Assembly (NCBI RefSeq): GCF_036365525.1
Contig: NC_090419.1
Span: forward strand, 13,907,311-13,971,310
DNA length: 64,000 bases
Reading direction: 5' to 3'
DNA from: Heterodontus francisci
Taxonomy: Eukaryota
This document shows positions 33,110 through 36,474 of the stretch, in pieces. A model generated the notes under the pieces. It was given only the letters and a program-made list of their open reading frames with translations, was not told the origin of the DNA and ran no database searches. Numbering within the stretch: the stretch's first letter is position 1; every line of letters starts with the position of its first letter. The position numbers and the translations under genes are program-made.

Positions 33110-33123
33110 TTAACTTTCCTGAC
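33110..33123 (-). CDS. GHRL: Ghrelin-like terminal coding exon (SQES*)
   Basis: Pyrimidine tract plus atccag acceptor, phase 1, TAA stop, AATAAA about 115 nt downstream. Confidence 0.7.
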
Positions 33124-36100
33124 CTGGATAGTGGGAGTAGGGAAAACGAGAGCACAATTAATCGAACGCACAAGAGAATAGGAACCTAGCGGCACAGAAG
33201 GAGGCCATTCAGGCCCTCGTGTCTGTGCTAGCTCTTTGAAAGAGCCGTCCACTTCGTCCGCACTCTGAACCACACGAGATGTTCAGACGGTAGGTTTTAG
33301 GGAAGCAGCTCGGAGCTGGAGAGTTTTAGGGAGGGAGTTCCTAAGTTCAGGACCGAGAACCCCCCCCCCCCCCCCCCCCCCCCCCCGAAGGCACGGTCTC
33401 CAGTGGGGAGGTGTGCGAGAGGCGAGGGTTGAAGGAGCGCCGTGTTTATTGGAGGTTACAGAGTTGGGAGGGATTTGAAGGCGGGGATGAGAATTTTCAA
33501 GTCGAGGCTTCGGTGGACCTGGGGACGGTAGGTGGGTGAGCTGAGGGCGTATCTGTAGAACTGGTTGTGAGTTGGGGGAGAGAGATGAGAGGGCGGCGCA
33601 GTGGTTAGCACCGCAGCCTCACAGCTCCAGGGACCCAGGTTCAATTCTGGGTACTGCCTGTGTGGAGTTTGCAAGTTCTCCCTGTGTCTGCGTGGGTTTT
33701 CGCCGGGTGCTCCGGTTTCCTCCCACATCCAAAGACTTGCAGGTGATAGGTAAATTGGCCATTGTAAATTGCCCCTAGTATAGGGAATATGGGATTACTG
33801 TCGGGTTAGTATAAATGGGTGGTTGTTGGTCGGCACAGACTCGGTGGGCCGAAGGGCCTGTTTCAGTGCTGTATCTCTAAATAAAAAATAAAGTAATCTG
33901 TATTAAAGGCGAGGCTTGGATTCCCTTCTGGCACAATGAGTCAATTTCCAGTTCTCGTTTTCATCGAATTAATACTTTGGGCGCCGCAATGCACGTCATC
34001 TCAAGAGACGCGAGGGGAAGAATGCAATAAGGCCAGCTCCCCGTTCAGGCTCCCATTACAAACTCGCGCGGTCGCAAGAGTCTCGTCGGAATAGTACCGC
34101 AGAGAGCCGGTGCCTTTGGGAGAAAATGAGTCACAAGAGGGAGGGTGGAGAGAGAGAGAGAGAGCGAGCGAGTGCGTGCTTGTTGGACTCACTGTCTGAT
34201 CCCAGGAGTTCACTGAGTATCTGCAGCAGCAGCAGCTCCCCGTTCAGCCTCCAGTCTGCCTTGTTCATCCCGAGTTCCACCTGGGAGGGCACCTCCACCT
34301 GAAACACATCCCCATCGTCAGTGGCACCGAAGGCGTGACTTCTTTGAAGGAGCTGGACGTGTTAACAAAGCAGCTGATGGGGTGGCTCGAGTTTGGAATA
34401 TAGTTTTTTTTTTACTGGGGCGGGGTGGTGGGAATCGTTGCGTTTTCACACGCAGGGGATGGGAACTCACCTGCGCGACTGCGGTGTTGCTGTGCCCCTC
34501 CTCCGTCTGCAGGACGACATCGTCGTAGACCTGACGCTTTGCGCTGGATTTCTGCGATGGAAGGGGGAACATACTGTGTTAGATCTGACCCTTGGGTTGC
34601 AACCAGACCACTTTGTAGATGTTAGTTGACAAGATAGGAACACAGGAGTTGGCCATTCGATAAGATCACAGCTGATGTGGTTGTGGTCTCAACTCCACTT
34701 TCCTGTCTGCCCCCCCCCCCCCCCCCCCCCCCATAACCTTTAACTCCCCTTGCCTTTCAAAAATCTCAACTCAGCCTTGAATGTATTCAATGACCCGGCC
34801 TCCACTGCTCTCTGGAGGAGGAAGAGAATTCCGCAGACTATCAACCCTCTGAGAGAAAAAAATTCTACTCATCTCCATCCTAAAAGGAAGACCTCTTATT
34901 TTTAATCTGTGCCCTCCCCCTGCAAGGGGAAACATCCTCCACTCTCTCAAGTTCTCTCAGGATCTTCTATGTTTCAATAAAATCACTTTCTCATTCTTCT
35001 AAACTCCAGTGGGTACAGACCCTACCTGTTCAACCTCTCTTGGTAAGATAAGCCCTTCATCCAGGAATCAGTGGAGTGAACCTTCTCTAAACTGCCTCGA
35101 ATGCAATTAATATCCTTTTTCAAATAAGGAGACCAAAGCCGAATACAATATTCTAGATGTGGTCTCACCAAAATCCTGTACAGCTGCAGTGAAACTTCCC
35201 TACTGTCAGATTTTGCCCGCTCGCTTAACCTATCTATATCCCTTTGTAGGCTCTTTACCTCCTCTTGACCACTTACTTTCCTTCCTATCTTGGTGTCATC
35301 GGCAAACTTAGCTCCAGACATTTGGTCCCTTCACCCAAGTCATTGATATAGAGTGTGAATAGTTGAGGCCCCCAGCACTGATCCCTGTAGCACTCCACTA
35401 GTTACAGCTTGCCAACCCGAAAAAGACCAGTTTATCCCTACTCTCTGCTTCCTGTGAGCTAACCAGTTCTGTATACATGCTAATACACTGTGTGCTCCTA
35501 GCTTGATGTAGTACCCTTAATGTTGCACCTTATCAAATGCCTTTTGGAAATCCAAGTATACTACATCTACAGGGTCCCCTTTATCCCCCTTGTTAATTCT
35601 TTGAAGAACTCCAATAAATTAGTTAATCACGAGCCCAAACTGAGGAACAAACAACAGGTAAACGGAGATAGAGCCATAGAGTTATACAGCACAGAAACAG
35701 GCCCTTCGGCCCATCGTGTCTGTGCCAGCCATCAAGCACCTAACTATTCTAATCCCATTATCCAGCACTTGGCCCGTGGCCTTGTATGCTATGGGGTTTC
35801 AAGTGCTGATCTAAATACTTCTTAAATGTTGTGAGGGTTCCTGCCTCTACCACCTCTGAAGGCAGTGCGTTCCAGATTCCAACCACCCTCTGGGTGAAAG
35901 GAGGAGAGGGAGAGATTTAGGAAATCTCAGAACGACGGGTCTCGAGCTCAAAGCACGATAAACGGGTGGCGGGGATGAAGGGAAAGGGGGTGGTGAGTTG
36001 GACGAGAGGCCAGAATCAGATAAGAAGGAAGCGCGGGAGCCAATTTGCGCACAGCAAGATCCCGCAAAACAGCGATGGTGAAAAGTGACAAGAAATTCTT

Positions 36101-36357
36101 TGGAATGTTGGTCGAGGGATATATGTTGGCCACTGGGGGAGACCTTCCATCCATTCTTCAAAATAGCGGGATCTTTTACATCTCCCACCCCCGCCCCACG
36201 CGGGTCGGGACACCATGCTCACCCTGGCGTTGCCACTGCGGTTGTTACTCTTCTCCTTGGGCCTCGGGTGGAAACTCACACCGGCCTCGGCCTCCATGGC
36301 CAGCGAGACGAGGAGCGCCAGGCCGACAAGCACCGCAAGCACCGACGAATTCTTCAT
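33110..36357 (-). CDS. GHRL: Prepro-ghrelin-like peptide (elasmobranch GRLN-LP, ghrelin/motilin family), 111 aa, 4 coding exons
   Basis: Exons 36357-36223, 34551-34471, 34298-34193 and 33123-33110 have canonical AG/GT sites and join in frame: MKNSSVLAVLVGLALLVSLAMEAEA|GVSFHPRPKEKSNNRSGNARKSSA-KR-QVYDDVVLQTEEGHSNTAVAQVEVPSQVELGMNKADWRLNGELLLLQILSELLGSDSQES*. It has a signal peptide, a G-x-S3-F N-terminus, a dibasic KR site and an AATAAA at 32991-32996. Orthology to GHRL itself is uncertain (see findings). Confidence 0.9.
33591..33892 (+). mobile_element. HE1-type SINE in the ghrelin-like last intron
   Basis: GGCGGCGCAGTGGTTAGCACC head, V-domain, A-rich tail. Confidence 0.88.
34193..34298 (-). 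CDS. GHRL: Ghrelin-like exon, C-peptide region (VEVPSQVELGM...LLQILSELLG)
   Basis: tttcag acceptor, gtgagt donor; resembles the APFDVGI...FLQDIL segment of proghrelin. Confidence 0.88.
34471..34551 (-). CDS. GHRL: Ghrelin-like exon with KR cleavage site (KSSAKRQVYDD...)
   Basis: tcgcag acceptor, gtgagt donor, 81 nt, phase 0-0. Confidence 0.88.
34635..35625 (-). mobile_element. CR1 LINE fragment in a ghrelin-like intron
   Basis: [16 protein letters not shown]. Confidence 0.85.
36223..36357 (-). CDS. GHRL: Ghrelin-like exon: signal peptide and mature N-terminus GVSFHPRPKEK
   Basis: Acceptor at 36366-36367, ATG at 36357, donor gtgagc after 36223. Confidence 0.92.
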
Positions 36358-36474
36358 TGCCAGACCTGGGAGATGGAGCAACCGAGGCAGGGGTTTTAGT
36401 GGGCATGTTCCCGGGGTGGCACCGCCCGCCCACCCCCGTCCAGCACGTAAGAAAGAGCTCGCATTTCCGTAGCG

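Follow-up and report, generated by a model that had tools for sequence, protein, structure and literature searches.

Which member of the ghrelin/motilin family lies beside IRAK1 in sharks: the orthologue of mammalian ghrelin (GHRL), or a sister copy of it left by an early duplication? The question is raised by a 64,000-nucleotide (nt) stretch of the Heterodontus francisci genome (assembly GCF_036365525.1, contig NC_090419.1, positions 13,907,311 to 13,971,310; hereafter the window), which carries on its minus strand, at 36357-33110, a gene that encodes an elasmobranch ghrelin-like peptide (GRLN-LP). Our results suggest that this gene is very probably a paralogue of GHRL. This core inference is already in print, since 2018, and the peptide itself has been known since 2007-2009.

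The ghrelin-like precursor and its shark relatives

A six-frame scan of the window found a single GVSFH motif (minus strand, 36282), and four coding exons on this strand join into an open frame of 111 amino acids (aa). The complete prepro-hormone gene claimed by the initial annotation is thus found in its place, including the quoted mature peptide of 24 aa followed by Lys-Arg (KR). Its three introns (1671, 172 and 1069 nt) are all GT-AG, with phases 0, 0 and 1. The precursor consists of a hydrophobic leader of 25 aa, a putative signal peptide called solely from its hydropathy (peak 3.2) and the A-x-A at its end, then the GVSFH peptide, with KR as residues 50-51. Exon 1 (36357-36223, 135 nt, exon edge at 36365) contains 8 nt of 5′ untranslated region, the ATG at 36357, the leader and mature residues 1-20, with the Gly1 codon at 36282 and Ser3 and Phe4 present. 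Exon 2 (34551-34471, 81 nt, phase 0-0) supplies the last four residues of the mature peptide, the KR site and the beginning of the C-terminal propeptide. Exon 3 (34298-34193, 106 nt) is the putative motilin/ghrelin-associated-peptide region, and because it lacks a Gly-basic site for amidation, an obestatin-type product is not predicted; exon 4 (33123-33110) has 14 nt including the stop TAA. An AATAAA polyadenylation signal follows on the same strand at 32991-32996, about 115 nt below the stop. At the other end, the acceptor-like AG that precedes the ATG by 8 nt points to a non-coding first exon.

Exons 2-4 had been defined before any relative was known. With exon 1 alone as query, one protein among 1.84 billion representatives was retrieved (P0002, E 1.3e-9), which comes from the basking shark Cetorhinus maximus, and a search with this protein as query (two of 82 candidates, both from sharks) gave a protein of the bamboo shark Chiloscyllium punctatum (P0003). 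Both are unannotated proteins, distinct from the biochemically characterised precursors. The window precursor is identical to the basking-shark protein at 75 of 111 positions, in a match that spans all four exons (30/45, 21/27, 21/35 and 3/4 identical for exons 1 to 4) and ends on the same last three residues, and to the bamboo-shark protein at 62 of 114. Exons 2-4 aligned to the basking-shark protein with a score of 193, against a mean of -13.7 for 2000 shuffles, none of which exceeded 28, and tblastn of this protein reached E 1e-10 on exon 2. Since a protein found from exon 1 alone also matches the predefined exons 2-4, the gene is not due to chance, and a mosaic of chance open reading frames was rejected because the match of exons 2-4 lies far above the shuffles.

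Membership in the ghrelin family is indicated by several features. In all three precursors, the peptide is followed by KR with no Gly before it, and one of the two full-length relatives, the bamboo-shark protein, matches PF04643 (motilin/ghrelin-associated peptide) at 22.3 bits, for a cut-off of 22, in the region aligned to exon 3. The top three clusters in an Atlas search are all ghrelin (0.87-0.88), which we take as a lead only. The exon plan is that of ghrelin genes, in which there are four coding exons, the peptide is divided between exons 1 and 2, and exon 2 is symmetrical and 78-117 bp long (PMC4879156). In addition, the window gene agrees with every sequence-level point of the published GRLN-LP, whose shark forms have 25 aa and start with GVSFHPR, whose stingray form has 16 aa, and which lack amidation and an obestatin site (PMC2803784). 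Compared with the GSSFLSP-type heptapeptide expected of a GHRL orthologue, the window peptide agrees at only three of seven positions (G1, S3 and F4). A word-based homologue search with exon 1 scored none of its 17 candidates, and PDB sequence searches with the basking-shark protein and with a two-protein profile gave matches only at E > 0.2. The window precursor is absent from the listed search results although the TMEM187 protein of the same window is listed, so the hormone gene may be unannotated in the Heterodontus francisci genome.

By analogy with other elasmobranch relatives, the signal peptide would be cleaved after residue 25, and a prohormone convertase would cut at KR to release a non-amidated peptide of 24 aa. 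Ser3 would then be acylated by a medium-chain fatty acid, presumably via GOAT, and the hormone would be secreted chiefly from stomach endocrine cells and act on a GHSR-family receptor. Indeed, elasmobranch GRLN-LP shows Ser3 octanoylation and its highest expression in the stomach, and activates rat GHS-R1a with a potency below that of rat ghrelin (PMC2803784); the processing of the window peptide, its acylation, its expression in the stomach and its action on GHS-R1a are extrapolated from these relatives.

Three further observations concern the precursor. An internal RK (residues 45-46) was considered as the main cut and rejected, since the basking-shark protein has no RK and the published shark peptides have 25 aa. 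Exon 2 (34471-34551, minus strand) is symmetrical, so that its skipping keeps the frame and deletes the KR site, which resembles the exon-2-deleted ghrelin variant described in PMC4879156; the record of the basking-shark protein bears the label isoform X2. An N-x-S sequon lies at mature positions 14-16 (36243-36235, minus strand), is also found in the basking-shark protein and is absent from the bamboo-shark one; as the stingray peptide is O-glycosylated (PMC2803784), glycosylation may recur in the ghrelin-like peptide family.

Gene order and origin of the locus

The kinase gene next to the hormone gene (533..26590, plus strand) has 11 exons in the window and 675 aa open to the stop, its 5′ end with the death domain lying outside. 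Its model contains HGD, DFG and three PxExx motifs (TRAF6-type). IRAK1 is distinguished by an intact catalytic Asp with a Gly in front of it, whereas IRAK2 has Ser-Asn, IRAK3 Gly-Ser and IRAK4 Arg-Asp, and the TRAF6 motifs number three in IRAK1 and two in IRAK2 (PMC3498205). On these motifs the kinase is IRAK1, as the initial annotation had proposed, and IRAK2, the identity it had named as fatal to its reading, is rejected together with IRAK3 and IRAK4. Human IRAK1 was also the best PDB match for all three kinase exons tested (96 vs 62, 51 vs 34 and 48 vs 26 bits), in lists that contained no IRAK2 kinase chain. An Atlas search with a kinase exon returned generic kinase clusters and no IRAK subtype. 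As a side observation, two of the ten introns of the IRAK1 model have GC donors (1643 and 6071, plus strand).

On the other side lies TMEM187 (47915-47121, minus strand), a single coding exon of 264 aa matching PF15100 with E 4e-84. A tree of the window protein with 15 named rows (16 in all, the 15 being chosen from 120 listed out of 124) places it within the cartilaginous fish (100/99) and, weakly, within the sharks (81/82). An exact look-up of two TMEM187 stretches gave no hit. In human, TMEM187 is at Xq28 (PMC13766674). Head-to-head with it stands an HCF-family gene (50673..61760, plus strand, end approximate), whose first four kelch exons start at an ATG at 50673 and which runs past the window; Pfam Kelch_HCF was found in all three exons scanned. 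From its position and a general resemblance we take it as a putative HCFC1 rather than HCFC2, and the PDB gave no HCF kelch match able to separate the two.

The gene order is therefore IRAK1 (plus, stop at 26590), hormone gene (minus), TMEM187 (minus) and HCF gene (plus), with 6520 nt between the stops of the hormone gene and IRAK1 and 10764 nt between the hormone ATG and the TMEM187 stop. In human, the order is HCFC1-TMEM187-IRAK1, and IRAK2 and GHRL are convergent. The location first described for the hormone gene, downstream of and convergent with IRAK1 in an IRAK1-TMEM187-HCF block, is thus confirmed. The flanks differ from those of GHRL, for which SEC13 with TATDN2, IRAK2 or CCDC174 would be expected: SEC13/TATDN2 are reported in mammals and coelacanth, and SEC13/IRAK2 in chicken (PMC4797157). 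Pfam gave no TatD or WD40 match between the flanks, in 126 stop-free stretches of at least 62 aa from 26600-47100 (excluding starts within 26900-30300), a weak test of the presence of TATDN2 or SEC13 since it missed the hormone exons too; 5 of the 126 stretches matched, of which one is credible (reverse transcriptase) and the others are repeat or low-complexity.

Blocks of human chromosomes 3 and X belong to one quartet from the early vertebrate genome duplications (PMC3826523; PMC8851675), and the published tree has IRAK1 as the sister of IRAK2 (PMC3498205). Because of both, the placement of a ghrelin-family gene next to the IRAK1 3′ end mirrors that of GHRL beside IRAK2, and since bony-vertebrate ghrelin lies by SEC13/TATDN2/IRAK2, paralogy is the best reading of the window gene. 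The features of an ohnolog are found together, namely a paralogous block (IRAK1/TMEM187) and a paralogous neighbour, IRAK2 standing beside GHRL in chicken. In the simplest account, which we consider very probable, an ancestral pair of an IRAK and a ghrelin-family gene would have been copied during the genome duplications of early vertebrates, with the copy on the IRAK2 side becoming GHRL of bony vertebrates and the one on the IRAK1 side, the window gene, being retained in sharks as a GHRL paralogue that would keep the ghrelin-type mechanism. The initial annotation had likewise called the gene a sister of GHRL and not its orthologue. Paralogy to GHRL stands as the best explanation, and its novelty does not, since it is stated in PMC6533539. 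Paralogy had also been offered as the explanation of the GVSFHP divergence. The bamboo-shark relative already differs at position 6, so that the motif drifts within sharks and its divergence does not require paralogy.

Several points weigh against this account and should be considered together. The paralogy is argued from one genome, and runs of N separate IRAK1 from the hormone gene. The basking-shark protein and the single window exons, scanned unspliced, match neither of the ghrelin/motilin Pfam models. The three PDB lists hold no IRAK2 kinase chain, and IRAK2 was excluded via motifs and neighbours. In the passages of PMC4797157, one ghrelin locus per vertebrate is reported; this survey used a 70% identity filter that would miss the window gene, and those passages hold no shark synteny. 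Because IRAK, GHRL and MLN are absent from the searched text and supplements of the paralogon paper PMC3826523, we infer the whole-genome-duplication origin of the IRAK pair, and IRAK and ghrelin are also unmentioned in the searched text of PMC8851675. MLN is placed within the same paralogon quartet, a placement for which a literature search found nothing, and the searched text of the paralogon papers does not deal with IRAK or ghrelin, so the label of a third ohnolog given to the window gene is likely and falls short of demonstrated.

The window gene could instead be a true GHRL orthologue, fast-evolving and brought next to IRAK1 in the shark line through translocation or an exchange among duplicated chromosomes. 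Its ghrelin-like working (Ser3 acylation, stomach, GHS-R1a activation in relatives) would fit such an origin, and swaps between paralogous regions are reported in this very paralogon (atp2b2/atp2b4 in Xenopus; PMC8851675). However, a random move would have to end up next to the 3′ end of the very kinase whose sister neighbours ghrelin, one of many thousands of intervals, and the 2019 review says that orthology was disproved (PMC6533539). No second shark ghrelin appeared among the results of the exon-1 and basking-shark queries, as relocation would have it, but these gave one and two proteins, and the protein searches returned no ghrelin or motilin precursor, missing even the published hammerhead and stingray ones, and are too insensitive to argue for absence. 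We therefore regard a relocated orthologue as improbable. An adjacency to IRAK1 created by the assembly is barely credible, even if a CA-rich minisatellite region (27164..30258) contains or borders all five N runs of the window (27644-30258, 1016 nt in total), between IRAK1 and the hormone gene, and if assembly of the paralogon block is reported to be difficult for cartilaginous fish (PMC8851675). No N occurs from the hormone gene through TMEM187 to the HCF gene, so the Xq28-type link is independent of IRAK1, and the same repeat unit continues throughout the gapped stretch. Both sides of it are, moreover, joined in the human order.

It is improbable, too, that the gene is a paralogue other than the closest sister of GHRL, i.e., a first-round or older segmental copy, maybe equidistant from motilin. 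The matched Pfam domain is common to ghrelin and motilin, the stingray precursor is about 20-27% identical to bony-vertebrate ghrelins (PMC2803784), and synteny of one neighbour cannot date a duplication. In contrast, IRAK1 and IRAK2 are sisters in the tree cited above, Gly1, Ser3 and Phe4 are ghrelin features when the listed motilins of fish, amphibians and reptiles begin with F, H or Y, and the Atlas neighbours are named ghrelin, none of them motilin. Returning to the duplicated IRAK-hormone pair, its IRAK1-side copy might also persist, unannotated, in the IRAK1-TMEM187 interval of certain bony vertebrates that evolve slowly (bichir, gar, coelacanth, lungfish and amphibians). It would there be a third acylated gut hormone in addition to GHRL and MLN, and the ligand of GHSR2 or MLNRB. 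The extra receptor paralogues GHSR2 and MLNRB are listed for such vertebrates (PMC6504862), and a short, fast-evolving gene on a hard-to-assemble block would escape identity-filtered surveys; we nevertheless rate this survival as unlikely.

Repeats and the X-type block around the gene

The region from 47121 to 61760 is part of the opsin/vasotocin-receptor paralogon, namely of its X-type block, which earlier assemblies of cartilaginous fish reportedly lacked (PMC8851675). The missing gene of this block is VTR2A, and the 16.18-Mb sequence on which the window block sits could be searched for it. Upstream of the hormone gene, minisatellites occur at 36794-37280 (33 nt unit), 37563-38168 (69 nt), 44697-45057 (33 nt) and 46076-46665 (33/60 nt), masking the promoter and the non-coding first exon; each unit of the 69-mer has a TATA-like run, and the arrays at 36794-37280 and 44697-45057 resemble inverted copies of one unit. 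A reverse-transcriptase fragment lies at 39483-39914, on the same side of the gene. Retroelements are also found in the neighbouring genes. A non-long-terminal-repeat (non-LTR) retroelement at 8001-10280 (minus strand), in an IRAK1 intron, has an open frame of 760 aa matching Pfam RVT_1 with E 1e-35, and a second copy at 62254-64000, in an intron of the HCF gene, is 93-96% identical to it; this family is probably young. In addition, a pair resembling long interspersed nuclear elements (20768-21919 and 56473-57619) has 1.15-kb copies that are 94% identical.

Prior knowledge and comparison with known systems

The paralogy of cartilaginous-fish-type and mammalian-type ghrelins is reportedly due to Hara et al. 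(2018, Nat Ecol Evol 2:1761). It is cited for this in PMC11825805 and in PMC6533539, the review in which Kitazawa and Kaiya (2019) describe the ghrelins of cartilaginous fish and of mammals as shown to be paralogous and not orthologous. No paper was found that ties the peptide to IRAK1 or TMEM187, in a literature search that was thin on subscription journals and gives weak evidence of novelty; the only paper found to hold ghrelin, IRAK1 and TMEM187 together was a review of TMEM genes in disease (PMC13766674). The explicit IRAK1-TMEM187-HCFC1 address, from one genome, may thus be a new detail. According to PMC8851675, the X-type block could not be located in the assembly of the thorny skate, and no cartilaginous fish genome yielded the receptor gene that marks it, which would explain the sparse description of this locus.

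For specialists, our results are a useful confirmation and not a surprise. They give a concrete address to a paralogy that receives one sentence in reviews, while other papers treat the shark peptide as plain ghrelin; motilin N-termini, extra GHSR/MLNR paralogues and the continued naming of the shark peptide as ghrelin are covered by PMC12714231, PMC5207463, PMC5126056, PMC8419268, PMC6504862, PMC11825805 and PMC9405061. If confirmed in more genomes, the locus would be a clear instance of hidden paralogy, the ‘ghrelin’ of sharks and that of mammals would not be comparable as one gene, and Ser3 acylation would be older than the duplication. The IRAK1-TMEM187 address also makes it cheap to look in basal bony vertebrates for a third hormone that is lost or hidden.

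Altogether, the window gene can be compared with three known systems. It shares with GHRL the four coding exons, the peptide over exons 1-2, the symmetrical exon 2, Gly1-x-Ser3-Phe4 and the adjoining Pelle-type IRAK kinase, and differs from it by its N-terminus (GVSFHP vs GSSFLSP) and its neighbours (IRAK1/TMEM187/HCF vs SEC13/TATDN2/IRAK2). Motilins are not known to be acylated, and the MLN locus lies by ITPR3/GRM4, at human 6p21, and not by IRAK1. Motilin and ghrelin-type genes go back to a common ancestral gene (PMC6533539), and the associated-peptide domain PF04643 of motilin was matched by the bamboo-shark relative of the window gene, whereas the window peptide begins with Gly in place of the F, H or Y of motilins. 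The likeness to elasmobranch GRLN-LP (PMC2803784) extends to the N-terminus GVSFHPR of hammerhead and blacktip reef shark, Ser3, a dibasic site after the peptide, the lack of an amidation Gly and of an obestatin site, and a short 3′ untranslated region with AATAAA; the window peptide differs by its length of 24 aa, compared to 25 in the published sharks and 16 in the red stingray, and by an N-x-S sequon at position 14, the stingray peptide being O-glycosylated instead.

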